A stretch of DNA of 64,000 nt, taken from the NCBI GenBank assembly GCA_017404385.1, contig JAFRCK010000017.1, forward strand, positions 3,419 through 67,418, given 5' to 3'. Below the pieces are notes generated by a model that saw only the letters and a list, made by a program, of their open reading frames with translations, was not told where the DNA came from and searched no databases. Shown here one piece after another: positions 7,102-28,577 of this stretch. Position 1 is the first letter of the stretch. Every line of letters starts with the position of its first letter. A program made the translations under genes and the position numbers. This stretch comes from Bacilli bacterium. GTDB taxonomy: Bacteria; Bacillota_I; Bacilli_A; RF39; UBA660.

Positions 7102-7896
7102 ATGCAAATAATACATAATAATAACTTAAATAAAATAAGCACGAGAGAAGATCTTATTGATCTTTTAAATAAATATAATGGTATATTAACTGATCCAACT
7201 ATCAGTTATTTAAAATCTTTAATAGATTTAGATTTTTCTGTTATTAATAATTATATATATGAAAGTGGAAGATCTGCTTTATCTGAATTAGAAATATATA
7301 AAAAGGCAACAATTTATAATATTTATAATAGAGCATTAAACTTATTTAAACAAAATGATTCGGAATTAACAATTTCAGGTAATGATGAAGGTATTGAAGG
7401 ATTAAAAGTATATTCTAAAATAGGAGATAGAAACTTAATATTATTTGATTATGATTATAAAGATAGTATAGGAAATTTATCTTTATTTAAAACAATTGAA
7501 AGTAAAGAACAAAGAGATGAAGAATTAAGAAGAGTAATGTGTGAATTAGATAAACTATATGATGAAAAAAATCCATATCATTCTATTCCTAATACTTATG
7601 GTGGACCTGCTTCTCAATGGGTTTTTGAACATGCTAAAAAAATACAAGAATATGAAGAAAGATTTAATCAATTAGTTTCTAAAAAAGAATTAACTGATGA
7701 AGATAAAAAAGAAATAGAAATAACAAAAAAGTATCATGAATTATTATTAGAAGATTATGGATTAACAAATAAGGACTTTGAAAAAGAACCTAATTTTCAT
7801 ATTTTAGATTTTGATAGAGATAGAACAAAAATGCATAAAACTCTTGTTAAAAAGATGCCATGTACAAATATTAAAAACAATATTAAATTTATTTAA
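7102..7896 (+). CDS. hypothetical protein (264 aa, no recognisable motif)
   Basis: GGAGG RBS. Own terminator. Soluble, N/K/E-rich. Confidence 0.5.
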   Translation: MQIIHNNNLNKISTREDLIDLLNKYNGILTDPTISYLKSLIDLDFSVINNYIYESGRSALSELEIYKKATIYNIYNRALNLFKQNDSELTISGNDEGIEGLKVYSKIGDRNLILFDYDYKDSIGNLSLFKTIESKEQRDEELRRVMCELDKLYDEKNPYHSIPNTYGGPASQWVFEHAKKIQEYEERFNQLVSKKELTDEDKKEIEITKKYHELLLEDYGLTNKDFEKEPNFHILDFDRDRTKMHKTLVKKMPCTNIKNNIKFI

Positions 7897-8218: not shown

Positions 8219-8270
8219 AACTTCCTAATGAAATGGGGAGTTATTATATAAAAATATGGAGGTTAATATT

Positions 8271-10562
8271 ATGGGGAGAGATATTTTTAAATATTATGCA
8301 TTATCTATGTATCAACAAGTTATAAATGAAAAACAAATACAACTAGATTCATATAAAACTTATGATACTAGGGATGATAAAGGAATAATTTTGTTTATTT
8401 CTTATGATATAAAATCAATTGAGATGTCCAATAATGTATTCGTAAATAATGTAAATTATACTGGAAATTTATCGTTTTATTATGATGAAAGTAAAAATTT
8501 TATAACAATAGTAGATTTACCATCTATTAGTTATAATTTTGATACATTTAAAATCTTTTCAGATGATATTTTAAATATTATAAAGAAAATAATTAGTAAG
8601 TATACATCCATTGAAGATGTAAAAATATCAATGAATCCATTTCTTGTTTTTGCATATAGTAATAATGTAAAAAAATATCTTAGAGAAGCTAGTAATATTT
8701 CATTAATTGATAGCATTGTTCGAAAAATGAATATAGTAATTGATAGTTTAAGTAGGAAAATAATAAATGATAAGAAAAAGAGAGATGAAGAATTAGAAAA
8801 ACAACAAAGAATTCTTGAAAAAAGAAAAACTCTTTTTGAATTAAAAAAGGAAGACTTTAAAAGTATTGATGAATATATAAAAACCTTAAACGAAAAGATT
8901 GTAGAGTATGCTAAATCTAATTATAAAAAATATGATAGACACTATCAAATTAATATAAAGAAACTAATGATTATATTTCAAGAAGAATTTGAATTAGCTG
9001 AAAAATTGGAAGAAGCTTTATTTAATCCAGAAGAATACTTCATATGGGAAGATTTATTTGATATGGAAGAATACTTAAAATGGGAAGATGATAGGGAAGA
9101 AGGAATAAAAAAATATAAAGAGATTTTAAATAATGTAAGAAGAATAGTATCTGAGTATGTAGAAGCAATAGGAGATAACTTTAGAAAAATAACTCAAGAT
9201 AGATTTGATGCAATTCTTGAAATCCACCCACATGCGGACCCATATGATCCTGATTTAGATCGTGAGATAATGTTTCAGCACGACTTTAATAAAGCTTTTG
9301 ATGAAGAATGTTCTTATTATCAAAGTCAACTCGAAGATGAGGAAACATATCCTTATATAAAAAAACTTTTTTGTAATAAATATAGAGAGTACGATGATTA
9401 TATTTATTATTTTTTGGATAAATACTTTCCTAAACAGATTAAAATTCTTAATTTAACTATGTTAGTATATCGTTCACAAGAAAAAATGAAAAAATATAAA
9501 GAATATATTGAAAACCCTAATCTTTTTTATGATTTTGGCAGTAAAAGATTATGGAGTGTAATAATGGAATTTCCTTATTTTTTAAGATTAGGTTGTGGAT
9601 ATAATTCAGTTTGGGAACAACGATATATTTATTCATTAATTATAAAGCCAGGAGTAAAAAGAATAGATTATGATAATTTGAGATATTTTTCAAAAAATTC
9701 AAAATATGATTCTTTTGTGGGTTCAATTGAAAGAAAGTGTCTTGGAGAAGTTAAAAAAGATTACTCTTGTGATAAGATTACTATAACTATTCCTAGTTCT
9801 TTGGAACTACATGAAATTGATAAAGTAATTAGTTTTGGATTTAAAAATGCTCGTCATGGTATCAATTATGTATGTGAAAATATAGATATAGCTAATTATG
9901 TTAAAAAAAGAATTGTCTATAAATACTTAAACAAATATACATATGAAGGTAATGTATTTGTAAATGTTGATCCTAAATATTATGATAATTATTTTACAAC
10001 TTTACCAAATAATTCAGATTTCTATCATCAATATGATTATAGTTCTAATTATAGATATAGTCGAAAAGATATAAATAGTTTTAATGTGATTATAGAAGCA
10101 TGTATAAGTTATAATAGATTTAAAAACAATGGTGTTATTAACAGGGAAGAAGTAGAAGAACAATTATTAGGGTCATATGGTGAATTAAAATATGAATCAT
10201 TTAATATTTCACCATATGATGCAATAGCTAGATATTTAAAAAATGAAGGACGAAAAAGTAATATTATATTTCCATTAATTGATCAATATTTAAGTATAGA
10301 TAAAGATATTAATCAATATTTAATAGAAAACGAAATCCCAAGACCAGTTAATTATGATGAATTTGTAAAGTTAAAATATTTGATACTTAAGGATAGATTA
10401 TCGTCAATTGATTATGATAACATAAAGTATCATTGCATAGGAAGAAAAAAAGAGGAATATATAAATAAAGCAATGGAAATTTCATCAAAAAATAGGCAAA
10501 AAAAATATACAAAATATAATGAACAATATATACAAGACTTTTATAAAAATAGTGAATTATAA
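8271..10562 (+). CDS. large hypothetical protein (about 763 aa), Y/D/E/K-rich, no TM, no recognisable domain
   Basis: GGAGG RBS before ATG 8271. Internal imperfect repeat EEYFIWED / EEYLKWED. Confidence 0.55.
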   Translation: MGRDIFKYYALSMYQQVINEKQIQLDSYKTYDTRDDKGIILFISYDIKSIEMSNNVFVNNVNYTGNLSFYYDESKNFITIVDLPSISYNFDTFKIFSDDILNIIKKIISKYTSIEDVKISMNPFLVFAYSNNVKKYLREASNISLIDSIVRKMNIVIDSLSRKIINDKKKRDEELEKQQRILEKRKTLFELKKEDFKSIDEYIKTLNEKIVEYAKSNYKKYDRHYQINIKKLMIIFQEEFELAEKLEEALFNPEEYFIWEDLFDMEEYLKWEDDREEGIKKYKEILNNVRRIVSEYVEAIGDNFRKITQDRFDAILEIHPHADPYDPDLDREIMFQHDFNKAFDEECSYYQSQLEDEETYPYIKKLFCNKYREYDDYIYYFLDKYFPKQIKILNLTMLVYRSQEKMKKYKEYIENPNLFYDFGSKRLWSVIMEFPYFLRLGCGYNSVWEQRYIYSLIIKPGVKRIDYDNLRYFSKNSKYDSFVGSIERKCLGEVKKDYSCDKITITIPSSLELHEIDKVISFGFKNARHGINYVCENIDIANYVKKRIVYKYLNKYTYEGNVFVNVDPKYYDNYFTTLPNNSDFYHQYDYSSNYRYSRKDINSFNVIIEACISYNRFKNNGVINREEVEEQLLGSYGELKYESFNISPYDAIARYLKNEGRKSNIIFPLIDQYLSIDKDINQYLIENEIPRPVNYDEFVKLKYLILKDRLSSIDYDNIKYHCIGRKKEEYINKAMEISSKNRQKKYTKYNEQYIQDFYKNSEL

Positions 10563-10823: not shown

Positions 10824-11453
10824 ATGAAAAACAATAGAATAGTAGACATATCACAATTTTATGATGAAAATGTAGGAACAATAAATAGATTAACAATGAA
10901 TAGTTCTATAGAAACTCTTTCAAAGTTTGATAAATTGCTACCGGATGATGATGAAATTTCTTCTGACGATATTGCTACTTCATGGAGATATGGATATTTA
11001 ATGAAATACTTTATGGGTGTAATAGTTACAGATGAATTAGATAAAGATACTACTCAAGATGTTCGTAATTATAATAATATTATAGAGAATATTAGATTTA
11101 GAATGTTTATTATGTTTTTTAGAGAAAACTATAGTAACAATGTTATATATTATGAAGAATTTGTTAAGTTTAGTAGATTATTAAATGAAACTATTATTCA
11201 TGATGAAGATATAGTTAGTGCTGATTTTAAAGATAAAATTATTAGTTCATTAAAAACATATTCTAATGATAATTTAGGAGTAGTTTATAATATTATTCAT
11301 GAACTAAATGGTAAAGAATATAAATTTGATAAGAACAAATTAAAATTAGTTATTGGTAGGGTTAAAACTATGAGTTTAGACTCTTTTGGTGAAGAAGTTG
11401 ATAAAATAGAATCTAGAAAAAATATTTTGGAATTAATAAAAAAAGAAGATTAA
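10824..11453 (+). CDS. hypothetical protein (209 aa)
   Basis: Extended -10 TGtTATAAT about 20 nt upstream, GGTGA RBS. No motif recognised. Confidence 0.5.
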   Translation: MKNNRIVDISQFYDENVGTINRLTMNSSIETLSKFDKLLPDDDEISSDDIATSWRYGYLMKYFMGVIVTDELDKDTTQDVRNYNNIIENIRFRMFIMFFRENYSNNVIYYEEFVKFSRLLNETIIHDEDIVSADFKDKIISSLKTYSNDNLGVVYNIIHELNGKEYKFDKNKLKLVIGRVKTMSLDSFGEEVDKIESRKNILELIKKED

Positions 11454-12702: not shown

Positions 12703-13392
12703 GTGAAAATAGGAATATTATTTGCGATGAAGGAAGAGTTAGATGCACTTCTTTCTAAAATAGAATTAAAGAATAGTTATGAAATATTTGATTTAAAATT
12801 TTATGAATGTGAATTAAATAATATAAATTGTACTTTGGTAGAATGTGGTATAGGTAAAGTAAATGCAGCAAGAAGTACTCAAATACTTATAGATAATATG
12901 AAAGTAGATTATATTATAAATGTAGGTGTTGCGGGTGGTATATCAAAAGATTTAGATGTATGTGATATTGTAATAGGTGAAAAACTAGTTCAACATGATT
13001 TTGATTTAACAGGATTTAATCATGAAAAAGGATATATACCAAATGTAGGTAAATATATAGATGCAGATGAATACTTAGTAAAAATTGCTATGGATAATAG
13101 TGAAGGATTAAACATTCATAAAGGCATAATTGCTTCAGGTGATATATTTGTAACAGAAGAAAAAATGAGTGATAAAATTAATACTAAATTTAATGCTCTA
13201 TGTGTAGAAATGGAAGGAGCTAGTATAGCTCAAGTTTGTTATTTATCACATATACCATTCTTAGTTATAAGATCTATATCTGATTCACCTAAAAAAGGTA
13301 ATAATAAAATGACTTATGATGAATTTGTTATAAAAAGTTCTGATATAGTATCTAAATATGTTTTAAAAATATTAATGTCATTAAACAATTAA
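12703..13392 (+). CDS. mtnN: 5'-methylthioadenosine/S-adenosylhomocysteine nucleosidase
   Basis: MKIGILFAMKEE..., GIGKVNAA, VGVAGG, MEGASIAQV motifs. GTG start with AGAGGTGA RBS. Extended -10 at 12679-12687. Confidence 0.8.
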   Translation: MKIGILFAMKEELDALLSKIELKNSYEIFDLKFYECELNNINCTLVECGIGKVNAARSTQILIDNMKVDYIINVGVAGGISKDLDVCDIVIGEKLVQHDFDLTGFNHEKGYIPNVGKYIDADEYLVKIAMDNSEGLNIHKGIIASGDIFVTEEKMSDKINTKFNALCVEMEGASIAQVCYLSHIPFLVIRSISDSPKKGNNKMTYDEFVIKSSDIVSKYVLKILMSLNN

Positions 13393-15082: not shown

Positions 15083-16443
15083 GTAAAAAACATGTTTATA
15101 TGATTGGTATAGGTGGAATAAGTATGAGCGGAATAGCAGAAATACTTGTTAATTATGGCTATACTGTAAGTGGTTCTGATATGACTGAAAATGAAATGGT
15201 AAGGCATCTTGAAGAAGAAGGTATAAAAGTAAATATTGGTCAAGTTAGTGAAAATATAACAAATGATATAGATTTAGTTGTTTATACAGCTGCTATTAAA
15301 GATACTAACCCTGAACTAGTAAAAGCTAGAGAGTTAGGAATCGAATGCGTAGAAAGAGGTAAATTCTTAGGAGAATTAACTGAAAATTTTAAAGATTGCA
15401 TTGGAGTTGCTGGTACTCATGGAAAGACAACAACATCATCAATGGTTTCATGCGTATTTGTAGAAGCAGGTGTTGATCCATCAATTCAAATAGGAGCTAA
15501 TCTAACACAAATAGGTGGTAACTATAGAGTAGGTAAAAGTGATTACTTTATAATTGAAGCATGTGAATATATGGATAGTTTTCAAAACTTTAAACAAAGA
15601 AGTGCAATTATTACTAATATAGATAATGATCATTTAGATTATTTTAAAAATATAGATAATATTTCTAAATCATTTGAAAAATATGTATCTCATCTACCAG
15701 AAAATGGACTATTAGTTCTTAATATGGATAATGAAAGATGTTATGATTTAAGAAACTATACTAAAGCAAGTGTTATTACAGTTAGTGAAAATAATAAAGA
15801 AGCTGATTATAATGTTAAAAATATAGAATATGATGATAGAGGTTGTCCGTCTTATGACATTTACAAAAAAGATGAATTTGTTATAAGAGTTAAATTAAAT
15901 GTAAGAGGAGAACATAATATATTAAATTCACTTGAAGCCTTTGCATTATGTTCTTGGTATGGAATTGATAATGAAACAATTGTTAAAGGATTATCAAGTT
16001 TTACAGGAGCTAGTAGAAGAATGGAATATAAGGGTCAGTTTAATGGTGCAAATGTATATGATGATTATGGGCACCATCCTACAGAAATAGAGGCTACAGC
16101 GAATGCTATATTAAAAGAAAAACATAATGAAAGTTATGCAGTATTTGAAGCACATACATATAGTAGATTTTACGAACATGTTAATAGTTTTGCTAAATCT
16201 CTAACTAAATTTGATCATATAATAGTAATTGATATATACGCAGCTAGAGAAGAAAATATATATGGTGTTAAACCGGAAGACTTAGTTGATAAACTAGTTA
16301 AATTAGGTAAGGATGCTATTTATATAAGTGATTATGATGAAATAAAAAAATATTTAAAAGAAAGAGTAAAAGAGGGAGACTTAATTATAACATTAGGTGC
16401 AGGTAATGTTACTAAAGTAGCCTCTAAACTTGTGGAGGATTAA
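15079..16443 (+). CDS. murC: UDP-N-acetylmuramate--L-alanine ligase
   Basis: N-terminal IGIGGISMSGIAEIL, GVAGTHGKTTTSSM P-loop. ATGA overlap with murD. Confidence 0.85.
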   Translation: MSKKHVYMIGIGGISMSGIAEILVNYGYTVSGSDMTENEMVRHLEEEGIKVNIGQVSENITNDIDLVVYTAAIKDTNPELVKARELGIECVERGKFLGELTENFKDCIGVAGTHGKTTTSSMVSCVFVEAGVDPSIQIGANLTQIGGNYRVGKSDYFIIEACEYMDSFQNFKQRSAIITNIDNDHLDYFKNIDNISKSFEKYVSHLPENGLLVLNMDNERCYDLRNYTKASVITVSENNKEADYNVKNIEYDDRGCPSYDIYKKDEFVIRVKLNVRGEHNILNSLEAFALCSWYGIDNETIVKGLSSFTGASRRMEYKGQFNGANVYDDYGHHPTEIEATANAILKEKHNESYAVFEAHTYSRFYEHVNSFAKSLTKFDHIIVIDIYAAREENIYGVKPEDLVDKLVKLGKDAIYISDYDEIKKYLKERVKEGDLIITLGAGNVTKVASKLVED

Positions 16444-16444
16444 T

Positions 16445-17308
16445 ATGAAAAAATTATTTGGTGGAATAAATTTAACATGGAAAAAACTAATTGTTTTTTC
16501 CATACTTATAGCTATATATGTTGCAGTTATGATGATAATACCTATAACAAAAGATACTTCTTTTAGAGATATAGGAACTACATTTGAATGGTGGATATTA
16601 TTTGGAGTATTAATAATAGTAAATAGTAAATCTCCAGTAGATTCGATGTTAAAATGTTTTGTATTTTTCTTAATAAGTCAACCACTTATTTACTTATTAC
16701 AGGTACCATTTTATGATCAAGGATTTAAAATATTTGTTTATTATCCATATTGGTTTAAATGGACACTTGCAACAATACCTATGGGATTCATTGGTTATTA
16801 TATTAAAAGAAAAGATATTATTAGTGTATTAATACTATTACCTGCATTAGGTTTATTAGCATATCAAGGTATAGGTTTTTTATCAGCAACATTAGATAGT
16901 TTCCCATCTCATTTATTATCTACAATATTCTGTTTTGCATCAATTATATTTATAGCAATTGGAGTATTTGATAAGTGGTTATATAGATTAATTACAATAG
17001 GAATAATTGCAGTGAGTTCAGTTGGATTCTTAGTATATGAAGGTGCTTTTGATAAAAACTTTGAACAAGTATATCAATTAAATCAATACGATATTCAACT
17101 TACTGAAAAAGCTGAAGTAACAAGTTTTAGTGGTTCAACTAATGGTAGTGCTGAAATAGTAAGTAGAGAATATAATACAATTAAAATATCAGGTAAAGGC
17201 AATAATACTTATAATTTTACTATAGATGATGGTAATGGTAATAGTTATGATTTTAAATATTACTTTGATTCAAACACAAAAGAGATAAAATTAGAGTTAG
17301 TTAAATAA
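16445..17308 (+). CDS. polytopic membrane protein with C-terminal soluble domain, unknown function
   Basis: GGAGG RBS before ATG 16445. 6-7 TM helices then about 90-aa hydrophilic tail. Terminator 17316-17353 (12-bp perfect stem). Confidence 0.5.
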   Translation: MKKLFGGINLTWKKLIVFSILIAIYVAVMMIIPITKDTSFRDIGTTFEWWILFGVLIIVNSKSPVDSMLKCFVFFLISQPLIYLLQVPFYDQGFKIFVYYPYWFKWTLATIPMGFIGYYIKRKDIISVLILLPALGLLAYQGIGFLSATLDSFPSHLLSTIFCFASIIFIAIGVFDKWLYRLITIGIIAVSSVGFLVYEGAFDKNFEQVYQLNQYDIQLTEKAEVTSFSGSTNGSAEIVSREYNTIKISGKGNNTYNFTIDDGNGNSYDFKYYFDSNTKEIKLELVK

Positions 17309-17381
17309 AACATGTAAATAGAATATAGAAATATATTCTATTTCTTTTTTTTATGTTATAATGATACTAGGAGGGTAATAT

Positions 17382-17738
17382 ATGAATGTAGAGATATTAA
17401 CTAAAAATAAAATAGATGTAAACCATGGATTAGAGTTACTAGGTGATATGGATTTTTATAATGAAACTCTAGGTACTTTCTATGATAATATAGAAAAAAA
17501 TTTAAAAGATTTAAAGAAATTTAAAGAAAGTGATGATTTTGAAAACTATGGAATCTTATCACATTCAATTAAATCTGATTCTAAATATTTAGGATTTATG
17601 GATCTTGCTGAAATTGCCTTAAGTCACGAAATGGCTGGTAAAGGATCAGATAAAAAATTTATAGAGGAAAATTATGATTCTTTTGTAGAAGAAATAAATA
17701 GAATTGTAAGTGTAGTTAAGGAGTATTTAGGGAGGTAA
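17382..17738 (+). CDS. histidine phosphotransfer (HPt) domain protein
   Basis: HSIKSDSKYLGFMDLAEIALSHE matches the HPt H-x-x-K-G/S-x-S-x-x-L-G consensus. 118 aa. TGtTATAAT promoter 17354-17362. Confidence 0.55.
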   Translation: MNVEILTKNKIDVNHGLELLGDMDFYNETLGTFYDNIEKNLKDLKKFKESDDFENYGILSHSIKSDSKYLGFMDLAEIALSHEMAGKGSDKKFIEENYDSFVEEINRIVSVVKEYLGR

Positions 17739-17740
17739 TT

Positions 17741-18151
17741 ATGAATAATGGATTTAGCCCAATTATAAGTGAAAAGGCAATACTAGTTGTAGATGATAGT
17801 AATATTACAAGAAATCTAATAGATCATGTATATAAAGATAAATATAAAGTATTAATGGCAAATGATGGAAAAGGTGCAATGGATATAGTTGATGTTATGA
17901 AAGATTCTATTGTGGCTATTTTACTTGATTTAAATATGCCTGATGTTGATGGATTTGAAGTACTTGATTATTTTTTAGAAAATAAAATAATGGATACTAT
18001 CCCAGTATGTATAATAACTGGTGAAGATGCACCAGAAATAATAGGTAAAGTAAAAACTTACCCAGTAAGTGCAATCTTATTAAAACCATTTAGTACTGAA
18101 CAAATAAAAACTGTTGTTACTAAAGCTATGGAATTAAAAGGGATAAAGTAA
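17741..18151 (+). CDS. single-domain response regulator (CheY-like receiver)
   Basis: VVDDS acidic pocket, LLDLNMPDVDG phospho-Asp region, LLKPF conserved Lys. 3-nt gap to HPt gene. Terminator AAGCAA ttat TTGCTT + T9 at 18149-18174. Confidence 0.75.
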   Translation: MNNGFSPIISEKAILVVDDSNITRNLIDHVYKDKYKVLMANDGKGAMDIVDVMKDSIVAILLDLNMPDVDGFEVLDYFLENKIMDTIPVCIITGEDAPEIIGKVKTYPVSAILLKPFSTEQIKTVVTKAMELKGIK

Positions 18152-18218
18152 AGCAATTATTTGCTTTTTTTTTGCTTTTATGGTATAGTATTTTGCGTCA
18201 AAAAAGGGGTTGAAATAT

Positions 18219-19535
18219 ATGGCAGAATTGTCAAAAGAAAGGTTAGAATATCTATCAAGAGAATTAAAAAAGTTTAAAGACGGAATTCCTGTAAATGATT
18301 TGGCATTAAAAGTATTGGAAAAAAAGATTTCATCATTAACAAAAGAGTTTATTGATGAAGGAAATACACTTGCTTATACTACAAGTAGAAGAAAATCTCT
18401 AGAGAGCTTTATTGATAAACAAAATAGAAATAAAGAAAAAAATTTAAATATTGATTATGAAGATATGCACGATATTGTAGGAATTAGATTAGTTTGTTTA
18501 ACTTTAACTGATATGTATGAATATATTAAGTTATTAAGAAAAACTGATGAATTTGAAATTGTTGAAGAAAGAGATTATATATCTAATCCAAAGAAAAGTG
18601 GTTATAAAAGTTATCATATATTAGTTAAATATCCAGTAGTAATGGGTTCTAAAATAGAATTTATAAAAGCAGAAATCCAATTAAGAACTATATTTATGGA
18701 TATATTCGCAAGAGAGGAACATAAGATAAACTATAAAGGTGATTGTACTGAAGAAAATAAGAGAAAACTTGCAAGTTTAAGTAAGAAATTAGCGTATTAT
18801 GATTGGTCTTTAGATAATCAGTTTAAGGTTGAAAAAAAGATAAAAGAAAAAGAAAGTGAAGAAGAATTGGCACCATATAGAAGAGAATATGAAAAAGTAT
18901 CATATATATTCTATAGTGTGTTTGATAAAATCAAACCATTAATTGAAGAATCAATTAAAGATTTTAAAAATAAGGATGATGTACTACATTTTGTATACGG
19001 AATAAAACCAATTGAAAGTATTCGAAGAAAGATGATAAAAAGACATTTAGAATGTACAGCTGAAGATATGTTACAAGTTAGAGATATAGTTAGATATAAG
19101 GTTGTGTGTACTGATGAAAAAACAGCAAAGGAATATATATCAGAAATAATGAAAAAATTAGAAGAAAATCCACAAATAACAAATATTGTTACAAGTGATC
19201 GTATGGATAAACCAAAAGATTCTGGTTATAGAGGATATAAGATAAATGCAAGTTATTTAATGCCATTTGTAACTGGTGCTCCTGTAACATTTGAAATTCT
19301 TATAAGAACAATGTTTATGGATGCCTGGGCTTTACATAACGATGTAATTTTTACTGATGAAGAAGCGAAAGAAAAATATAAAGAGCCATTTAGTGGTTTA
19401 TCTGAAGCATTACACGATGCTGAATCTGCTTTGGAAATAATTAAATCAGGTAGTAAAGCTAATGCTAAAGAAAAAGAAATAAAGGTATTAGAATTAGTAA
19501 ATAAATATGATAAAAGTAAAAAAAATGAAGAATAA
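18219..19535 (+). CDS. tandem RelA/SpoT-type (small alarmone synthetase-like) nucleotidyltransferase domains
   Basis: Domain 1: RRKSLESFIDK, DIVGIR, PKKSGYKSYH, EIQLRTIFMDIFAREEHKINYK (full synthetase motif set). Domain 2: IRRKMIKR, DIVRYK, PKDSGYRGYK, EILIRTMFMDAWALH (G, H and Q positions substituted). Confidence 0.65.
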   Translation: MAELSKERLEYLSRELKKFKDGIPVNDLALKVLEKKISSLTKEFIDEGNTLAYTTSRRKSLESFIDKQNRNKEKNLNIDYEDMHDIVGIRLVCLTLTDMYEYIKLLRKTDEFEIVEERDYISNPKKSGYKSYHILVKYPVVMGSKIEFIKAEIQLRTIFMDIFAREEHKINYKGDCTEENKRKLASLSKKLAYYDWSLDNQFKVEKKIKEKESEEELAPYRREYEKVSYIFYSVFDKIKPLIEESIKDFKNKDDVLHFVYGIKPIESIRRKMIKRHLECTAEDMLQVRDIVRYKVVCTDEKTAKEYISEIMKKLEENPQITNIVTSDRMDKPKDSGYRGYKINASYLMPFVTGAPVTFEILIRTMFMDAWALHNDVIFTDEEAKEKYKEPFSGLSEALHDAESALEIIKSGSKANAKEKEIKVLELVNKYDKSKKNEE

Positions 19536-19621
19536 TGAAATGCACCCCTTGGAGTAGACATTAATAAAAAACGATTTTAAAAAATATGATAGAATACACT
19601 TCCGAAAGGAGGTGTTTTTCT

Positions 19622-19921
19622 ATGGCTTCAAAAGGACAAAAGTATGAAAAATATACTATAGAATTAACTATGGAAATATTAAGAAAACATAACGAAGAAG
19701 GAGTTCCAATAACAAGACTCGAAAAAGAATATAATATATCACAGAATACTATATATAATTGGAATAGAAAATATAGTTTACACCCTGAATTATATCCAGG
19801 TTTAGGGAAAAAACGTGGTAGGCTTAAAGAATCAAATTTAACAAAAGAAGATTGGAAAGAAAGATATGAAATATTAAAAAAATACCAGGCCTTCCTCAAG
19901 GCACAACGAGAGAAAAAGTAA
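19622..19921 (+). CDS. IS3-family transposase OrfA (HTH)
   Basis: GGAGG RBS. Helix-turn-helix N-terminal protein. Ends after A7 slippery run (19876-19882). Confidence 0.8.
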   Translation: MASKGQKYEKYTIELTMEILRKHNEEGVPITRLEKEYNISQNTIYNWNRKYSLHPELYPGLGKKRGRLKESNLTKEDWKERYEILKKYQAFLKAQREKK

Positions 19922-20757
19922 CATTTATAAATTTATATAAAAATAATTATAAACTTACTAACATGTGTGCCGTACTTAATATAAGTCCTAAAACCTATTA
20001 TAAATATAGAAATAAGGAAGATCCAGATTATTATGATTATTTAATGATAAAAGAAATATTTGATAATTCTAAGGGTACATATGGATATCGTAGGATTGTT
20101 GATGGCCTACTCCAAAAGTATGGTGTAGTTATGAATGGAAAAAAGGTATTAAGAGTAATGAAAAAATATAATTTAATGGCTGAATATATAAGGAAATCAA
20201 GGAAGAAAAATAAAAATGAGAGAATTGAAGATAATGTTAAACCAAATCTATTGAATAGAAATTTTACTACTGATGCACCAAATAAAGTGTGGGATACAGA
20301 TGTAACATATCTTATATTTAAAGGTTCAAGAGCATATTTATCAACAATAATAATAGATTTATATGATAGACATGTAGTTGCATATAAAATATCTAAACAT
20401 AATGATAATAAATTAGTTATAGATACTTTAAATGAAGCTTTATCAAAAGAAAAAGATGTACATGGATTGATCATTCACAGTGATCAGGGATTCCAATATA
20501 CATCTTTTGAGTACAAAGTTATTTGTGAATCAAACGGAATACAAATTTCTATGGCTAGAAAAGGAAATCCAATTGATGACTCTCCTATAGAGAGTTGGCA
20601 TCCACTTCTTAAGAAAGAAACTTTGTACAACAATAATATTACATCTTTACAAGAATATATTCAACTTGTAGAAGAATGGATATTATTTTATAACACAAAT
20701 AGATTAAAGTCAAAAGTTAAGAAAAAGAGAAAAACTTATACAAAAAGAGAAAAGTAA
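19880..20757 (+). CDS. IS3-family transposase OrfB (DDE integrase core), expressed as OrfAB by -1 frameshift
   Basis: -1 frame open from the A_AAA_AAA heptamer through HSDQGFQYTS (rve domain) to 20757. Track ORF 19963 is the internal Met. Confidence 0.75.
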
Positions 20758-20912
20758 TTTTTTCTCTTTTTAATATAATCGCTTTTTATTAATGTCTACT
20801 ATTTAGGGTTCACATCATAATTCTTCATTTTTTTATTCCCAAAATTTCACATAATTTTTACATAATGATTTTTATTTTTTTTATTATGATATTTAACAAG
20901 AGGAGGGATATT

Positions 20913-21611
20913 ATGGCTATAACCATAATAGATAGAATGGAACAAAAATACTTTATTAGTTTTGATAAGTATAAAGAGCTTATGGATAGAATAGAGGATA
21001 AACTCGTTAAAGATAAGTATTTTGATGAAAGGATATATAATATTTATTTTGATAATGATGAATATGAGTTCATAGTTAAATCTCTTGATAAACCTTTATA
21101 TAAAGAAAAGGTTAGATTAAGAAGTTATTCTGAAGCTAAAGAAGGAATTAATGTATTTTTAGAAATAAAGAAGAAGTTTAAAGGACATGGTAATAAAAGA
21201 AGAGTTGTTATTGATTATAATGATGCGATAAATTATATTAATAATAAAGTTATACCTAATACCAATAAACAAATTATGAGTGAACTAGATTATACATTTA
21301 AGAAGAATAATTTAAAACCTAAAATTAGTTTAACATATGATAGATTATCTTATGCATTTAAAGAAGATGAATCATATAGAGTAACATTTGATACAAATAT
21401 TAGATATAGTAATAAAAAACTAGATCTAGTTAATATAGATGATGAAGATTCACTATTTAATGATGGATATATTATGGAAGTTAAAACTTTAAAGGGATAT
21501 CCCAATTGGTTTTCTAAAGTATTAAATGAACTAAAAATATATCCTACTTCATATTCAAAAGTAGGTGAAGCTTATAAAAAATTAAAAGAAAGGAATGAAT
21601 TATATGTTTAA
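20913..21611 (+). CDS. VTC/CYTH-like triphosphate-tunnel domain protein (putative)
   Basis: MEQKYFISF..., VRLRSY, FLEIKKKFK, GNKRRV alternating basic beta-strand pattern. AGGAGG RBS before ATG 20913. Confidence 0.4.
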   Translation: MAITIIDRMEQKYFISFDKYKELMDRIEDKLVKDKYFDERIYNIYFDNDEYEFIVKSLDKPLYKEKVRLRSYSEAKEGINVFLEIKKKFKGHGNKRRVVIDYNDAINYINNKVIPNTNKQIMSELDYTFKKNNLKPKISLTYDRLSYAFKEDESYRVTFDTNIRYSNKKLDLVNIDDEDSLFNDGYIMEVKTLKGYPNWFSKVLNELKIYPTSYSKVGEAYKKLKERNELYV

Positions 21612-22266
21612 TAGTATTATAGGTGATAGTTTAACTTTTTCCTCAGCAAGTATATGTATTATTACTTCTATTATATTAGGTATTTTTATATCATTTGTAC
21701 ATATGAAAACTACTAAATATAATAAAAACTTTATAGTATCCTTATCAGTTATGCCATTAATAGTAAGTATGATTATTATTATGGTAAATGGTAATTTAGG
21801 AACATCCGTTGCGATTGTAGGTGCTTTTTCTCTAATTAGATTTAGAAGTATACCAGGTAATTCAAAAGAAATAATATCAGTATTTCTAGCTATGTCTATT
21901 GGTCTTGCAATAGGTATGGGACAAGTAGTATTTGCTTCTTTAGTAACACTAGTAACTGGTTTAATACTATTATTATTAACTTATTCTAAATTTGGTAATG
22001 AAGAAACAAAATATAAAACACTTGATATACTTATTCCAGAAGATTTAGATTATGATACAGTATTTGATAAAGTATTAAAAAAATATACTGAAGTATTTGA
22101 AATAATAAAAGTAAAAACATCTAATATGGGTAGTTTATATGAATTGAAGTATAAAATAGAAATGAAAAAAAATATTTCTGAAAAGAAATTTATAGATGAA
22201 TTAAGAGTTTTAAATGGAAATTTAAAAATAAGTATAAGTAAAGCTGAAACGGAGGAGATGTTATAG
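21604..22266 (+). CDS. membrane protein, DUF4956-like (N-terminal 4 TM + C-terminal soluble domain)
   Basis: Architecture and position downstream of a VTC-like gene. Not motif-verified. Confidence 0.35.
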   Translation: MFNSIIGDSLTFSSASICIITSIILGIFISFVHMKTTKYNKNFIVSLSVMPLIVSMIIIMVNGNLGTSVAIVGAFSLIRFRSIPGNSKEIISVFLAMSIGLAIGMGQVVFASLVTLVTGLILLLLTYSKFGNEETKYKTLDILIPEDLDYDTVFDKVLKKYTEVFEIIKVKTSNMGSLYELKYKIEMKKNISEKKFIDELRVLNGNLKISISKAETEEML

Positions 22267-23498
22267 TGAAAAATAAAAGTATAACTATATTAATAATAGT
22301 GTTATTAATATTAATTGGAGGAATAACTACTTATTTAGTATTCTTTAATAATAAGGTAGATGATACAAAAATAGAAGATACAAAGACTGAAACTAAAACA
22401 GATACTAAAACAGATACTACATCAACAGATAAATATGATTTTAGTAGTTATGAGACTAGTGATATAGATTTAAATAAAGAAAGTAAATTATCTATTACAA
22501 AACAAGGTGTTTATAATTTATCAGGTACATTAAATGGTTATATTGAAATAAATACTGAAGAAAACGTGGTACTTTCTTTTAAAAATGTAACTATTAATAA
22601 TACAAGTGGACCTTGTATAAATGTAGTTAACGCTAAAAATGTATATATTAAATTAGAAGGAGAAAATACTCTTACAGATGGATCTAATTATACTGGATTT
22701 GAAGAAGCTGATGCCTGTATTTATAGTAAAGATGATCTAATTATATATGGAGATGGAATACTAAATGTAAATGCTAATTATGGTGATGGAATTGTATCTA
22801 AAGATGATTTAGAAATAAATTCAGGTACTTTTAATATTATTTCTAAAGATGATAGTATTAAAGGTAAAGATTCAGTATCTATAGAAACAGGTACATTTAA
22901 TATTAAAGCTGGTGGAGATGGTATTAAAACTACTAATGAAGAAGATATAAATAAGGGAATTATTACAATTAATGGAGGAGATATAACTATTAATAGTACA
23001 ACAGATGGTTTTGATTCTACAAATAAAATAATAATTAATAATGGTAATATAAGTATTGATTCAGGTGATGATGGAATACACGCAGATGGGTATATAGAAA
23101 TAAATAATGGAACTATAAATATATCAGGAGCAGAAGGAATAGAATCTACTACTATTAAAATAAATGATGGTACCATCAACATATCTGCATCAGATGATGG
23201 AATTAATTCCGGTAACAAAAGATCTGATTATCAAGTATTAACTGAAATAAACGGAGGAAATATAACAATAAAAATGGCACAAGGAGATACAGATGGAATA
23301 GATTCAAATGGTGATTTAACAATTACTGGTGGAACTATAAATATAACAGGTCAATCTGCATTTGATTATGATGGAACAGCTACATATACTGGAGGTACAT
23401 TAATTGTTAATGGTGAAGAAATACATGAATTAACTAATCAGATGATGGGACCAGGAGGTATGGGACCAGGAGGAATGAACGGTCAAAGAATGAGATAA
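22266..23498 (+). CDS. signal-anchored secreted protein with about 22-aa parallel beta-helix-like repeats (Cthe_2159-like carbohydrate-binding family?), GPGGM C-terminal repeats
   Basis: GTG start with GGAGGAG RBS. N-terminal TM. Repeats of the form NGGxITIxS..DGIxS. Terminator 23497-23526 shared with convergent gene. Confidence 0.5.
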   Translation: MKNKSITILIIVLLILIGGITTYLVFFNNKVDDTKIEDTKTETKTDTKTDTTSTDKYDFSSYETSDIDLNKESKLSITKQGVYNLSGTLNGYIEINTEENVVLSFKNVTINNTSGPCINVVNAKNVYIKLEGENTLTDGSNYTGFEEADACIYSKDDLIIYGDGILNVNANYGDGIVSKDDLEINSGTFNIISKDDSIKGKDSVSIETGTFNIKAGGDGIKTTNEEDINKGIITINGGDITINSTTDGFDSTNKIIINNGNISIDSGDDGIHADGYIEINNGTINISGAEGIESTTIKINDGTINISASDDGINSGNKRSDYQVLTEINGGNITIKMAQGDTDGIDSNGDLTITGGTINITGQSAFDYDGTATYTGGTLIVNGEEIHELTNQMMGPGGMGPGGMNGQRMR

Positions 23499-23523
23499 AA
23501 AAGTGGTAATTATTTACCACTTT

Positions 23524-24030
23524 TTAATGTTCATTAGAATGAGTAAAATAACCATTTATTAATTCTTTACTTTGATTAATACTAATAAATGCATTAATAT
23601 CAACAGAGTTAATTAGACTAATTAATTCATTCTTTCGTTTATTATTAATAAAAGAATAAACTATATAAATATTTGTCCCATATAATCCATGTGCATTTAT
23701 TATAGAACCTGAATATCTATGCTCTTTTAATATATCAAACACTTCATTTTTATTGGTTATAATTTGAACAAGTAATTTCTTTTTAGATAATTTAGTAGTT
23801 AATAAAGAAGCAAGATATGTTCCAATAGAATAACCGGCTGCGTAACTAATTGCGATTAGTATTTCATTTTTATCATCTAGCGCTAATTTAATTATTAAGA
23901 ACCAAATAATAATTTGAACAAAACTAAGTATAGAACTCATTATTCTTTTTTCATCTATTAATAGTATTGTAGATATAGTGGATGTAAAAGCTTCAATTGT
24001 TTTTAATAAAAGTATAAGTATAAATAACAT
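23524..24030 (-). CDS. small membrane protein with DUF2179-like C-terminal domain (YitT-family fragment architecture)
   Basis: 3 TM helices then ...INAHGLYG...DINAFISI pattern. GGTGA RBS. Confidence 0.4.
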   Translation of the reverse strand: MLFILILLLKTIEAFTSTISTILLIDEKRIMSSILSFVQIIIWFLIIKLALDDKNEILIAISYAAGYSIGTYLASLLTTKLSKKKLLVQIITNKNEVFDILKEHRYSGSIINAHGLYGTNIYIVYSFINNKRKNELISLINSVDINAFISINQSKELINGYFTHSNEH

Positions 24031-24103
24031 ATAATCACCATTATTAGTTTTTTATTTATTTAAAAAAATATTCTAATATGTTAGAATATTTTTAGGTGAT
24101 TTT

Positions 24104-24931
24104 ATGAAATTAAAAGTAAATAATTTTAATTTAAAAGATACTGTTACTTGTGGTCAAATATTTAGATTTGAAGAAGAAGTAGATAATTCTTATACAGTTA
24201 TTCTTTCTGATAGAGTAATTAATATAAAACTAGTGGGAAATGAATTAGTAGTAAAATCATCTGATGAAAATAATTTAGAAAAAGTAATAAGAAATTATTT
24301 TGATTTAGACTATGATTATGAAATAATAAATAAAGAATTGTTAAAAATAGATTCAAGTAATAAAAGTATAATTGATTCATGTAAAGGTTTAAAAATGATT
24401 AATGAACCTATATTTGAAACAATAATTAGTTATATAATTTCTTCTAATAATAGAGTTCCACAAATTAAAAAAGCATTAGATAATATATCTAAAACTTATG
24501 GAAAAAAAGTAGTTTTTAATAATAAAGAATATTATTTGTTTCCAAGTTTAGAAGAGATAAGTAATTGTGATATTAATACACTTAGAAATTGCAAGGTAGG
24601 TTTTAGGGATAAATACATTTATGAATTTATTAATAAAGTAAAGAATAATGAATTTGATATTAATAGAATTATAGAAATGAATAGTGAAGATGCACTAGAA
24701 TACTTAAAAACTCTTAATGGAGTAGGAGATAAAGTGGCTTCATGTATTTTATTATTTGCTTATCATAGATTTGATGTATTTCCAATTGATACATGGGTAA
24801 AAAAATATATGAAAGATAAGTATAATATTGAAGGAGTTAATAAAATACAAGATTTTGTGTATAAAAAATATAGAAATTATTCAGGTATAGTTATTCAATA
24901 TATGTTTCATTATAAAAGAAATAAGAATTAA
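24104..24931 (+). CDS. 8-oxoguanine DNA glycosylase (Ogg, HhH-GPD superfamily)
   Basis: OGG_N-like LKDTVTCGQIFRFEE and HhH-GPD LKTLNGVGDKVASCILLFAYHRFDVFPIDTWV with catalytic K and D. Confidence 0.7.
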   Translation: MKLKVNNFNLKDTVTCGQIFRFEEEVDNSYTVILSDRVINIKLVGNELVVKSSDENNLEKVIRNYFDLDYDYEIINKELLKIDSSNKSIIDSCKGLKMINEPIFETIISYIISSNNRVPQIKKALDNISKTYGKKVVFNNKEYYLFPSLEEISNCDINTLRNCKVGFRDKYIYEFINKVKNNEFDINRIIEMNSEDALEYLKTLNGVGDKVASCILLFAYHRFDVFPIDTWVKKYMKDKYNIEGVNKIQDFVYKKYRNYSGIVIQYMFHYKRNKN

Positions 24932-26001
24932 TTCTTATTTTTTTTAATTTTTATATTTGAAATTAATAATAATATTATTATGGGAATAAAAAATATGAAT
25001 ATAAAGTATTTCATCATAAAATTGGAACCTATGGTCGTATTATTAAATAATACTAATGAAGTTATAAAACTAATAATTATTATAAAACCAAATATTTTTT
25101 TATTATATTTATTAATATAATTAAGATATTCTTTAATAAAGAATAATGATAAAACAGTTGATATAAATATTGAGTACAACCATTCAATTGTAGATAAATT
25201 TTCAATATGTTGAATAAAGTCAAAGAAATTTACTTTTTTCATTAGAGTATATTCTGGATAACTTAAAATTCTAGCTAAATCTATGCCAAATACACCTATT
25301 ATAAAAATAAATAATAATAGAAAATTAATAATAGTTATTATATAAAAAATAATTATAGTTTTTGATAGTTTATTTGACTCATATATTTCATTTTTTGGTA
25401 TTACTAATAACATAAATGTAGGTGAAACAAAATATGATGTAAATAATATTGAATCTTTAATTATTTTAATTATAGGGGTATTAAACCAAGGTTTTAAATT
25501 ATTAATTTCTATAGAAGAATATAAATTTAGAATTGAAAAGAGAATTATAAAAACAGTTACTAAAAAAACAGATATTGATACCTTAGATATGGTTTTCATA
25601 TTTAATGATGCACACCATACAGCTGGTATTAAGAATAATAAAATTATAATAAAACTAGGTGTAGAATCTAAATATTTATTTTGCACATAAGTGTTAATAC
25701 TCCAAAGAGAATATATAAAATAAAATGTAAATATAATTACTAAAAAAACATTAATGATTTTACCATAAGATCTAAATAATTTATCGTTCTTTTTAAATAG
25801 ATTTAAATCTTTTTCAAAATTAAAATATCTAATAATAAAGAATAGTATTATCATAGATAATAATCCACCTAATAATATAGAATAAATACTACCATTACCA
25901 GATCCATTTAATAATTGATTTAACCCAGTATGTAGAAACATAGTCTGTGATATAAAAAATATAATTGAAGAAAAACCAATTCTACTTATTTTAGTGTTCA
26001 T
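24928..26001 (-). CDS. spore germinant receptor B subunit (GerAB/GerKB family permease)
   Basis: 10-TM APC-like protein, third gene of gerA-type operon. AAAGGAG RBS. Confidence 0.65.
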   Translation of the reverse strand: MNTKISRIGFSSIIFFISQTMFLHTGLNQLLNGSGNGSIYSILLGGLLSMIILFFIIRYFNFEKDLNLFKKNDKLFRSYGKIINVFLVIIFTFYFIYSLWSINTYVQNKYLDSTPSFIIILLFLIPAVWCASLNMKTISKVSISVFLVTVFIILFSILNLYSSIEINNLKPWFNTPIIKIIKDSILFTSYFVSPTFMLLVIPKNEIYESNKLSKTIIIFYIITIINFLLLFIFIIGVFGIDLARILSYPEYTLMKKVNFFDFIQHIENLSTIEWLYSIFISTVLSLFFIKEYLNYINKYNKKIFGFIIIISFITSLVLFNNTTIGSNFMMKYFIFIFFIPIIILLLISNIKIKKNKN

Positions 26002-27121
26002 ATTTTTCTCCTTTACTTGAATTACTTATTTCACCTTTTCTAGAAATATTAATATTTATTTTTGTTTCTAAATTATATTTTTCATTATTATAATTTGGAT
26101 AATCTAAATAAATAATTCTTTTTAGTCCTAAGAACTCACTATCTGTTTTTACATCTAAAACTTTGTTTATATAATCTTTTATTTTATTATTAGTTAATTT
26201 TTCTAATTCTGTAATTGTTTCTTCATTTATTTCTTTTTTACAATTGTATTCATTTATATTAGCATTTCCTTCTATATAAAAATTAATAATGAATTTATTA
26301 TTACTTTTATTAACATTTGATTTTGTTTTGCTACTAAGAATTGAGATAGATGCATAATTATTATCATCACATTTAACTGGTACAATCATTTGATCAATCT
26401 TATTCATAAGAAAATTATAGCCAATTGTTTCATCATTATCTAAATATTTTTCTAGTTTTCCATCTTTAGTAATAGCGATGTTGCTAAGTTCAATTCTTGT
26501 TTTAGGACTTGTCGTTTCACTATTATTAATAGTTGTTCCTTTATTATTAAAGTTTTCTACTTCAATTACGGATACCACTGGATCTATATATTTTTTTAAA
26601 TAAAAAGATAGAAATTCATCTAATTTAGAGGAATAGGTTAATGCACTTTCAATAGAAGAGTTTTCAATTGCGTTAGAAACATAATCAGCTGGAGTTGATC
26701 CATTTGTTAATACTTTTATTACATCTAAAGCCTGAATTCCTTTTGATATTGTGATAGTGAACTCGTCTTTTATTTCAGGTAATCTTTGAAATAAATCGAT
26801 TACATTAATAATCCCTTCTTTAGCAATTTCTTCAGATAAAACAAGTTTACTTAAATGTCCACCATATAGCTTTTTGTCAGCTGTATTAGTCATTTTCCTT
26901 AATGCTTCTTCTATAGTTGAACCGGTAGATTCAAACACAATTACTTTACTAGATTCAGATTCTTTTTCATCTTTTATATTCATAACTTGGGCACCAATTA
27001 AATATTTATCTTCTTTTTTATCAATAGAGATTGAAGAAACTATTCCAAGTTTATTTAATTCTTTATAGTTATAACAACCTGTTAATAATAATATAAATAT
27101 TATTGTTATTATCTTTTTCAT
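25991..27121 (-). CDS. spore germinant receptor C subunit lipoprotein (GerAC/GerKC family)
   Basis: Signal peptide + lipobox LLTGC. 376 aa. AAAGGAG RBS. Confidence 0.65.
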   Translation of the reverse strand: MKKIITIIFILLLTGCYNYKELNKLGIVSSISIDKKEDKYLIGAQVMNIKDEKESESSKVIVFESTGSTIEEALRKMTNTADKKLYGGHLSKLVLSEEIAKEGIINVIDLFQRLPEIKDEFTITISKGIQALDVIKVLTNGSTPADYVSNAIENSSIESALTYSSKLDEFLSFYLKKYIDPVVSVIEVENFNNKGTTINNSETTSPKTRIELSNIAITKDGKLEKYLDNDETIGYNFLMNKIDQMIVPVKCDDNNYASISILSSKTKSNVNKSNNKFIINFYIEGNANINEYNCKKEINEETITELEKLTNNKIKDYINKVLDVKTDSEFLGLKRIIYLDYPNYNNEKYNLETKININISRKGEISNSSKGEKYEH

Positions 27122-27122
27122 A

Positions 27123-28508
27123 TTATCTCCTTTTAGTATTTCTTGTTAATATTGAATTTCTTTTGTTTAATTTATATCTTTTAGTTAATATAAAATTATT
27201 CTTTTGTTCATCAAAGTTAAATGGTGCATATGGAACTGTATAATCAAATCCAAAACTATCTATAGAACAAACTCTAATTAGGAATAACAAAGAAGCAATA
27301 AATATTCCATATAGACCAACAAAGGCACCTAATAATAAAAATATTAGTTTCCATAGTCTAATTGTATTAACAACATCATTATCATTAAATAAAAATGAAG
27401 CTACTGAAGATATAGCTATTATGATTATCATAATAGGTGAAATAATTCCAGCATTAACAGCTGCATCTCCAAGTACTAAGGCACCGACAATCGACATTGA
27501 TGAACCAACGACAAATGGAACTCTGGTATCAGCTTCTCTTAGTATTTCAAAAGTGAACCATAAAAGAATTGCTTCAACAATTGATGGAAAAGGAACACCT
27601 TCACGCTGCATAGAAAAATTTATTAATAGAGATGTAGGTAATGTTTCTTGGTTAAATGTTGTTAAAGCAATATAAATACCAGGGGTAATTATCGCTACTA
27701 AAAAAGCAACTATTCTAATAATTCTTGTAATAGATACGTTTTTATTATTCTGATAATAGTCATCAATATTCTTTATATAATCAGAAAAGAAGGATGGTAT
27801 AATTAACACTTGTGGTGAATTCTCTACAACAATTGAACATCTTCCTTCCATCATACAAAATGATACAAAGTCAGGTCTTTCTGTCATTAAGTTAGTTGGG
27901 AACATATAAGACTTATCAGTTAGATTATCAGCTATATAATTACTATTAGCAACATAATCTAGACTCATTGTTTTTAATTTTTTTTCAATTTTATTAATTA
28001 AATCTTTATTAACAATGTCATCAACATATAAAAGAGATACTTTTGTTTTACTCTTTGTTCCAATAATAAATTCTTTAATAATCAATTTCTTTGATCTAAT
28101 TCTTTTTCGAATTAAACCTAAATTATTTTGATAATTTTCTGAAAATGAATCTTTAGGTCCTTTTATTACTTTTTCATTACTAGCTTCATTTATTCCAGAA
28201 TCAAGACTATACTTTGTTTCAAAAGCTATGTAATCATTATTGATGTTAATAATTGTAAAACCAGAGTATAAACAAAATTCTAATTCCTTATTATCTTTTA
28301 AATCTATAAAGTTATTAATTGGTAACTTGTTTTTAATGTCATTAATATTATCTAATTCATTATTTAATATTGGTTTTAAAATAAAATCGTTTATATCATT
28401 TGATGAACAAAGTGATTCAAAATATATGATATTAATAGTATTATTATTTATAATTATTTCTCTTTTTTTTAAATCGGGATTATTATTAATTAATTCATTT
28501 ATATTCAT
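27123..28508 (-). CDS. spore germinant receptor A subunit (GerAA/GerKA family)
   Basis: Soluble N-domain + C-terminal 4-5 TM. ATG (complement of 28506-28508) with AAAGGAG RBS. Track ORF extends to TTG at 28538. Confidence 0.65.
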   Translation of the reverse strand: MNINELINNNPDLKKREIIINNNTINIIYFESLCSSNDINDFILKPILNNELDNINDIKNKLPINNFIDLKDNKELEFCLYSGFTIININNDYIAFETKYSLDSGINEASNEKVIKGPKDSFSENYQNNLGLIRKRIRSKKLIIKEFIIGTKSKTKVSLLYVDDIVNKDLINKIEKKLKTMSLDYVANSNYIADNLTDKSYMFPTNLMTERPDFVSFCMMEGRCSIVVENSPQVLIIPSFFSDYIKNIDDYYQNNKNVSITRIIRIVAFLVAIITPGIYIALTTFNQETLPTSLLINFSMQREGVPFPSIVEAILLWFTFEILREADTRVPFVVGSSMSIVGALVLGDAAVNAGIISPIMIIIIAISSVASFLFNDNDVVNTIRLWKLIFLLLGAFVGLYGIFIASLLFLIRVCSIDSFGFDYTVPYAPFNFDEQKNNFILTKRYKLNKRNSILTRNTKRR

Positions 28509-28577
28509 AAAAAGCTCCTTTATAATTAGTTTGTACAATTTTTAATAAAATATAGTATAATAACACTAGGTGTTTTT

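Follow-up and report, generated by a model that had tools for sequence, protein, structure and literature searches.

A RelP/RelQ-like small alarmone synthetase fused to a degenerate second synthetase domain in uncultured Bacilli

Small alarmone synthetases (SAS) are usually seen as enzymes of one domain whose self-regulation works through homo-oligomers, a picture that a natural head-to-tail fusion of two synthetase units alters. One gene in a 64-kb window (the whole stretch of DNA analysed, G+C ~25%) encodes such a fusion, and raises the question of what a second synthetase unit contributes when its active site is no longer complete. An initial annotation had described the product as two tandem RelA/SpoT-type synthetase domains, the second degenerate, and had proposed that the second might make a different product. 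The open reading frame is intact and genuine; its product matches the database protein MBQ3474973.1 (P0001) residue for residue, where it is annotated as 'MAG: hypothetical protein IJH20_02250 [Bacilli bacterium]'. A Shine-Dalgarno sequence precedes the ATG at a distance of 9 nt, and use of the alternative TTG at 18210 is unlikely, as it abuts the GGGG and leaves no spacing. No second RSH gene was found within the 64-kb window.

18219-19535, + strand: tandem small alarmone synthetase gene (438 aa; MBQ3474973.1)
18206-18209, + strand: GGGG Shine-Dalgarno, 9 nt ahead of the ATG at 18219

Both halves of the protein are complete synthetase units. The whole protein matched PF04607 (RelA_SpoT) with 126 bits (E 9e-37) in two stretches, the better covering aa 56-174, and the C-terminal half by itself scored 43.0 bits (E 6e-11), above the gathering cut-off of 27. 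The halves also align with each other (BLASTP, E 2e-12, 32% identity over 127 residues). Against the RelQ/YjbM equivalog NF053588 (NCBIfam), the N-half scored 121 bits, the C-half 49.6 bits, and the whole protein 159.7 bits, short of the curated cut-off of 320 bits. The closest solved relatives of domain 1 in the PDB sequence search were B. subtilis YwaC/RelP (114 bits) and RelQ. AlphaFold scores for the full-length protein (pLDDT 90.2, pTM 0.84) indicate a confidently packed two-domain body in which the same order of secondary structure elements appears twice, and Foldseek placed this model close to RelP/RelQ chains (TM 0.81-0.88, target-normalised). Modelled alone (pLDDT 88.7), the C-half was most similar to S. 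aureus RelP 6ewz among PDB structures (E 2e-13, TM 0.73/0.79, 194 columns), followed by RelQ. Each half comprises the complete SAS fold (alpha1, beta1 to beta5, alpha5). Since the C-half passes PF04607 by itself and its model is RelP-like, the protein has two family matches rather than one and its second half is not an unrelated fold, which confirms the tandem arrangement that had been proposed.

The two units differ in their catalytic motifs. Domain 1 carries every one of them, as had been noticed at the outset, and is canonical at 21/21 checked motif positions.

18300-18818, + strand: domain 1 (aa 28-200), complete RelP/RelQ-like synthetase with canonical motifs
18387-18419, + strand: domain 1 RxKxxxSxxxK motif, RRKSLESFIDK (aa 57-67), for ATP phosphate binding and adenine stacking
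18471-18488, + strand: domain 1 DxxGxR motif, DIVGIR (aa 85-90), with the Mg2+ Asp and an adenine-stacking Arg
18588-18617, + strand: domain 1 G-loop PKxSGYxSxH, PKKSGYKSYH (aa 124-133)
18672-18737, + strand: domain 1 EIQLRT (aa 152-157) to EEHKINYK (aa 166-173), with the catalytic Glu and the ribose His

In S. aureus RelP, R78 and R112 sandwich the adenine of ATP, H190 holds the ribose, and K80, S84, K88 and R91 hold the phosphates; D107 and E174 are the Mg2+ ligands, and the acceptor base stacks on Y151 of the G-loop (PMC5794853). Alignment to these residues found domain 1 complete (R57, R90, H168, K59, S63, K67, D85, E152 and Y129 are the matches), whereas domain 2 lacks the adenine-stacking Arg pair and the ribose His. 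RelQ is activated allosterically by pppGpp, and the residues of its allosteric cleft appear not to be conserved in domain 1.

18915-19439, + strand: domain 2 (aa 233-407), SAS fold complete, ATP-donor site degenerate, strong purifying selection acting on it
18999-19031, + strand: domain 2 motif 1, GIKPIESIRRK (aa 261-271), with Gly in place of the first Arg and with Lys, Ser and Lys retained
19083-19100, + strand: domain 2 DIVRYK (aa 289-294), Asp retained, Gly replaced by Arg and Arg by Lys
19212-19241, + strand: domain 2 G-loop, PKDSGYRGYK (aa 332-341), with K333, G336, Y337, R338 and Y340 invariant in the family and His replaced by Lys
19293-19343, + strand: domain 2 EILIRT (aa 359-364) to DAWALHND (aa 368-375), Glu retained, Gln replaced by Leu and the ribose His by Asp, W370 invariant

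In domain 2, the counterparts of R78, R112 and H190 have become G261, K294 and D375. By contrast, those of K80, S84 and K88 are retained as K263, S267 and K271, those of D107 and E174 (D289 and E359) are invariant across 32 aligned homologues, and that of Tyr151 (Y337) is likewise invariant. The full synthetase motif set is therefore absent from domain 2, with G261, R292, K294, K341, L361 and D375 substituted and the YK of EHxxxYK missing. Three of these replacements (Gly, His and Gln, now R292, K341 and L361) had been recognized in the initial annotation; the change of the DxxGxR Arg to K294, that of the EHxxxYK His to D375 and the disappearance of YK come in addition. The motif 1 string first picked out in the second copy, IRRKMIKR, covers just the tail of GIKPIESIRRK, whose first Arg is lost too (G261). 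For the Gln of EIQ (L361 here) and the His of GYxxxH (K341 here), we assume the roles they have in the Rel(Seq) and RelP structures. Judged by residue identities, the losses in domain 2 centre on recognition of the donor ATP, and the pocket is predicted to be still basic and Mg2+-competent.

Domain 2 is not decaying. Compared with the allele at locus L094 in a closely related genome, a single 90%-identical allele of a recombinant mosaic locus, domain 2 had a dN/dS of 0.025 and domain 1 one of 0.073, the overall value being 0.11. Mean pairwise identity within the degenerate clade was 0.54 in the domain 2 core and 0.57 in the domain 1 core, vs 0.35 in the linker and tail. Across 32 homologues, some as little as 25% identical, 11 positions of domain 2 never vary, and the reading frame is uninterrupted in all degenerate-type members (29/29).

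The tandem arrangement is uncommon, as had been suggested. A word-indexed search returned 34 clusters (377-556 aa, all but one reaching 417 aa or more), every one tandem in layout, and 18,952 synthetase-like matches came from profiling 1.84 billion representative proteins exhaustively; both searches pooled yielded 67 full-length tandem proteins of 400-570 aa. Members listed for ten clusters all came from metagenomes or 'Bacilli bacterium' MAGs, and this ten-cluster source check placed the tandem in uncultured Bacilli of gut and rumen and nowhere else. All members are presently annotated as hypothetical proteins of uncultured Bacilli. Searches with tblastn of 50,697 phage and 72,556 plasmid records recovered single-domain SAS genes and no tandem copy, and a contig scan with the family alignment gave no tandem loci among the matches listed (80/80 were single-domain SAS).

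In 65/67 tandem proteins, all 13 positions checked in domain 1 are canonical, while domain 2 varies: canonical at 12 core positions in 27/67, with one or two changes in 11/67 and with at least three in 29/67, 28 of which form the clade of this gene. The pairing of an active with a pseudo-domain, as originally described, thus holds for this gene but is only one state of the family, both domains looking canonical in the 27. In a neighbour-joining tree, residue losses are nested (positions in domain 1 numbering). R90K and H168D, the ribose His, are lost first (P0027, P0040, P0044; R90K is the sole change at the P0027 locus), H133K and Q154L/I second (P0006-P0026, P0037-P0039), and R57G and G88R last, only in P0001-P0005, which include this gene. 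Domain 2 therefore degenerates stepwise along one clade that ends at this gene, in an order that is provisional because the tree carries no bootstrap support. A single ancient duplication behind all tandem SAS was considered and rejected, since in some members (P0076, P0073 and P0047/48/54) each domain has its nearest relative in the other domain of its own chain, at 50-64% identity. The fusion therefore arose more than once, through independent duplications.

The evidence tilts towards a (p)ppGpp synthetase of RelP/RelQ type whose fused partner domain does not catalyse but probably retains nucleotide binding. A whole second synthetase unit would here be joined behind a RelP/RelQ-type SAS. Domain 1 (aa 28-200) would be the catalyst, binding ATP and moving its beta-gamma pyrophosphate onto the 3'-OH of GTP, GDP or GMP, with (p)ppGpp or pGpp as predicted products. 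Domain 2 (aa 233-407) has kept the fold and a putatively basic, Mg2+-competent pocket (K263, S267, K271, D289, K333, Y337, R338 and E359). Because it has lost its binding residues for the adenine and ribose of donor ATP, it is most likely not a pyrophosphokinase. We propose that it may serve as a built-in partner protomer, in an intramolecular pseudo-dimer that would replace the homo-oligomer contacts of RelP/RelQ, and as a nucleotide-sensing regulatory site that would bind a guanine nucleotide or alarmone and tune domain 1.

A fairly unlikely alternative is pyrophosphokinase activity in both domains, with a donor or acceptor specificity that has shifted in domain 2; a new acceptor could be the 3' end of an RNA or an adenine nucleotide, the latter yielding (pp)pApp. 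The residues for Mg2+, phosphate and the G-loop that are invariant in domain 2 (D289, E359, K263, K271, K333, Y337) would fit this, as would the replacements that keep charge (R to K and H to K); with D289 and E359 invariant and charge kept, residual or altered catalysis by domain 2 is possible. That domain 2 is canonical in 27/67 relatives also implies that two active sites per chain are probably ancestral. However, the Arg pair and His lost here (G261, K294, D375) belong to the donor site, and known RSH enzymes all use ATP as donor. The Q to L and H to K changes are, moreover, fixed clade-wide along with the loss of EHxxxYK. A changed acceptor fares no better, as the best-conserved part of domain 2 is the acceptor-side G-loop (K333, G336 and Y337 invariant); a lost donor site beside an invariant acceptor loop is the opposite of what a new acceptor would predict. 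Another product such as (p)ppApp, put forward in the initial annotation, is accordingly not favoured, and we dropped it as the leading reading because degeneration hits the donor site and not the acceptor site.

Other readings start from the genes around the synthetase. On the same strand immediately upstream lie a small Hpt-like protein and a stand-alone receiver.

17316-17352, + strand: terminator-like hairpin followed by U8 at the end of the upstream gene (-9.6 kcal/mol, z -3.8), 5' boundary of the Hpt-REC-synthetase unit
17382-17738, + strand: Hpt-like protein (118 aa, motif HSIKSDSKYLG), upstream of the synthetase
17741-18151, + strand: stand-alone receiver, REC (136 aa; PF00072, 61.7 bits vs 30.2; DD, D63 and K115 present)
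18150-18178, + strand: weak hairpin and U-run in the REC/synthetase gap (-5.9 kcal/mol, z -1.2), followed by a -10-like TGnTATAGT

The Hpt-like protein scored 23.8 bits against Pfam Hpt (PF01627), just below the cut-off of 24.6, with the HxxKxxxxxxG motif in place, and matched the Hpt region of TorS (E 0.006); a profile search of PDB sequences gave no meaningful match for it. Its identity across related loci is 77-100%. Downstream of the synthetase stop codon in L094, where the allele is uninterrupted, lies a strong hairpin (z -6.4). With strong hairpins at both outer ends, the Hpt, REC and synthetase genes are bracketed by good terminators. Co-transcription of the three is possible, not certain, and an internal promoter in front of the synthetase is possible as well. 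The Hpt-REC pair stands upstream in six of ten degenerate-clade loci (the window, L094, L091, L092, L081 and L085); it is missing at the other four (P0009, P0011, P0015 and P0022) and at 3/3 loci outside that clade (P0027, with only R90K, and P0028 and P0031, both canonical). As the genomes carrying these six loci are close relatives (MurC 86-87% identical), the linkage is not independent evidence of function.

Among these related genomes the locus is unusually variable. The tandem synthetases are 40-65% identical, where neighbouring genes reach 70-100% (Hpt 81-100%, REC 77-86%, MurC 86-87%, VTC 86%), and the alleles fall into three deep sub-clades of the family tree. The window and L094 form a mosaic: the flanking DNA is ~98-99% identical, while divergent patches (64-91% identity, dS 0.44-0.96) cover the Hpt gene, the C-terminal portion of the membrane protein encoded upstream, and the N-terminal two-thirds and tail of the synthetase. 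Identity stays at 97-99% in REC and in the core of domain 2 (dS 0.04-0.13). dN/dS is low across the locus (0.03-0.19), which indicates that divergent alleles are exchanged by recombination rather than driven by positive selection.

One reading built on these observations makes the pseudo-synthetase a docking or sensing module for an Hpt to REC phosphorelay that would switch (p)ppGpp synthesis at the protein level, with divergent, recombining alleles kept by conflict or niche pressure. We consider it improbable; if true, it would represent direct two-component control of a small alarmone synthetase.

Very doubtful is a conflict or defence element, that is, a toxic SAS restrained in cis by domain 2, in the manner of CapRel(SJ46), or regulated by the neighbouring REC, with an arms race behind the variability. 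PADLOC reported a match to the candidate system PDC-S33, but it is confined to the SYNTH region, PDC-S33 would probably be matched by any SAS, and no other synthetase-type PADLOC model matched. It is the variability of the locus alone that suggests a defence or toxin role, and the low dN/dS attributes this diversity to allele exchange. Domain 1 groups with housekeeping RelP/RelQ (1e-24 to 1e-32), no toxSAS appeared in the PDB sequence search, and the phage and plasmid records held no tandem copy. The synthetase gene sits among the core genes murD, murC, ogg and gerA and not in a defence island, and the adjacent, often overlapping small antitoxin gene by which toxSAS toxin-antitoxin systems are defined had no conserved counterpart at any of 14 loci (the window and 13 others).

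There is next to no chance that domain 2 is a functionless relic decaying after duplication: several of its catalytic residues are replaced, but the reading was rejected on dN/dS, and a core as conserved as that of domain 1, the intact frames and a confidently predicted fold count against it too.

Read as an active synthetase with a partner domain that probably no longer catalyses, the tandem SAS is a system for asking what the partner protomer contributes in RelP and RelQ, and whether an RSH synthetase site can become a nucleotide sensor. The family spans every intermediate, from both sites canonical to increasingly degenerate, so that the evolution of a pseudo-enzyme could be rebuilt experimentally. 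The link to the Hpt-like and REC genes, if functional, would join two-component signalling to alarmone synthesis.

Surveys and reviews treat SAS as single-domain, with RelZ (RNase HII + SAS) as the dual-domain exception (Jimmy 2020, Atkinson 2011, Krishnan 2020), and a synthetase-synthetase tandem is absent from the main texts of these three. Targeted literature searches for tandem or duplicated synthetase domains returned nothing relevant; we found no prior description of a tandem SAS with a pseudo-domain in the literature searched, an incomplete collection, so that an earlier description elsewhere is possible. RelZ (MS_RHII-RSD) of Mycobacterium smegmatis has been described as a 'dual-domain SAS', and Rv1366, a homologue of SAS that reportedly cannot synthesise (p)ppGpp, is in effect a stand-alone pseudo-SAS (PMC7591505). 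The partner domain of RelZ is, however, an RNase HII and not a second SAS, and Rv1366 is a separate protein without a fused active partner. CapRel(SJ46), a fused toxSAS-antitoxin whose C-terminal domain controls the N-terminal SYNTH in cis (PMC11782079), resembles the tandem protein in placing a C-terminal domain behind an N-terminal SYNTH on one chain and in the variability of its homologous loci. Its C-terminal domain, by contrast, is a pseudo-Zn-finger and its SYNTH pyrophosphorylates tRNA, whereas the C-half here has the SAS fold; the CapRel match in Foldseek was far poorer than those to RelP/RelQ. RelA likewise keeps a dead RSH catalytic-domain copy beside the active one, in a regulatory or structural role (PMC3153485), but its dead domain is an HD hydrolase rather than a second synthetase, and RelA is regulated by ribosome-binding C-terminal domains that the tandem protein lacks. 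Closest of all are RelP and RelQ, which assemble as homotetramers (PMC5794853) and whose ATP, Mg2+ and G-loop residues (S. aureus RelP, B. subtilis RelQ) are all present in domain 1. Their chains in the PDB are about 210-255 aa long and hold one domain each, whereas the tandem protein joins two full SAS units in 438 aa, the second with a degenerate donor site, and so falls outside the usual definition of a SAS (a single synthetase domain of about 200-260 aa). In tandem second-messenger enzymes with degenerate GGDEF or EAL domains, the dead copy keeps its nucleotide pocket and senses allosterically for its active neighbour; fold and chemistry are unrelated to SAS, and the likeness to the arrangement proposed here is a conceptual analogy.

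The 8-kb neighbourhood of the tandem synthetase gene (window 16330–24500) was compared between two strains, the window and locus L094, which carries a 90%-identical allele. The following features lie in or next to the compared stretch:

16430–17308, multi-pass membrane protein of 292 aa with a C-terminal soluble domain
19536–20817, IS3-family element of 1,282 bp comprising orfA (HTH_Tnp_1) and orfB (rve)
20865–23498, cluster encoding VTC-domain, DUF4956 and Cthe_2159 proteins
24928–28538 (− strand), putative GerA/GerAC/spore-permease germinant-receptor operon

DNA identity between window and L094 was ~98–99% in the stand-alone REC gene, the core of synthetase domain 2 and the VTC-to-DUF2179 stretch, and 64–91% in hypervariable patches covering the Hpt-like gene, the C-terminal portion of the 292-aa membrane protein and, within the synthetase, both the tail and the N-terminal two-thirds. 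Synonymous divergence was likewise patchy, with dS values of 0.04–0.07 for REC and for the VTC-to-DUF2179 genes, 0.13 across the core of domain 2 and 0.44–0.96 in the divergent patches. This mosaic identifies the compared stretch as a recombination hot spot. The IS3-family element, present as a single copy within the 64-kb window, has TG...CA termini with imperfect terminal inverted repeats, and its insertion point is exactly 3′ of the synthetase stop codon. The target-site duplication is the TAA stop itself (19533–19535), with the second copy at 20818–20820, and the insertion splits the synthetase terminator hairpin, which is intact in L094 and the related locus L092.

Gene order around the synthetase was partly shared among related loci. 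The window, L092 and L094 share two arrangements: the membrane protein, for which Pfam and NCBIfam searches gave no match, is encoded immediately upstream of the Hpt-like gene, and the VTC/DUF4956/Cthe_2159 cluster lies directly downstream of the synthetase. Polyphosphate-type VTC proteins may be connected to alarmone metabolism. L081, L085 and L091 lack the cluster and have DUF2179 directly after the synthetase. Synteny with L081 and L085 is the basis for reading 24928–28538 as a germinant-receptor operon; if correct, this uncultured 25%-GC Bacilli bacterium would be a likely endospore former. Farther upstream in the window lie:

6168–6893, 7102–7896, 8256–10562 and 10824–11453, four ORFs of 209–768 aa
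12023–12676, HD_3 phosphohydrolase
12703–13392, purine-nucleoside-phosphorylase-family gene

The four ORFs, which precede the latter two genes, had no Pfam match at E 1e-5.

In one sub-clade (loci L083/L084 and L093, encoding P0022 and P0015), the tandem synthetase adjoins not the Hpt-REC pair but a Fic-domain gene in convergent orientation, which has a 64–65-aa partner, as well as two small divergent genes.

Tandem synthetases from other metagenomes (P0076, P0073, P0047, P0048 and P0054) have domains 1 and 2 that are 50–64% identical, and the nearest relative of each domain is the other domain of the same protein. Head-to-tail fusion therefore had several independent origins. A separate loss in P0076 has left its domain 2 without motif 1 or the catalytic Glu.
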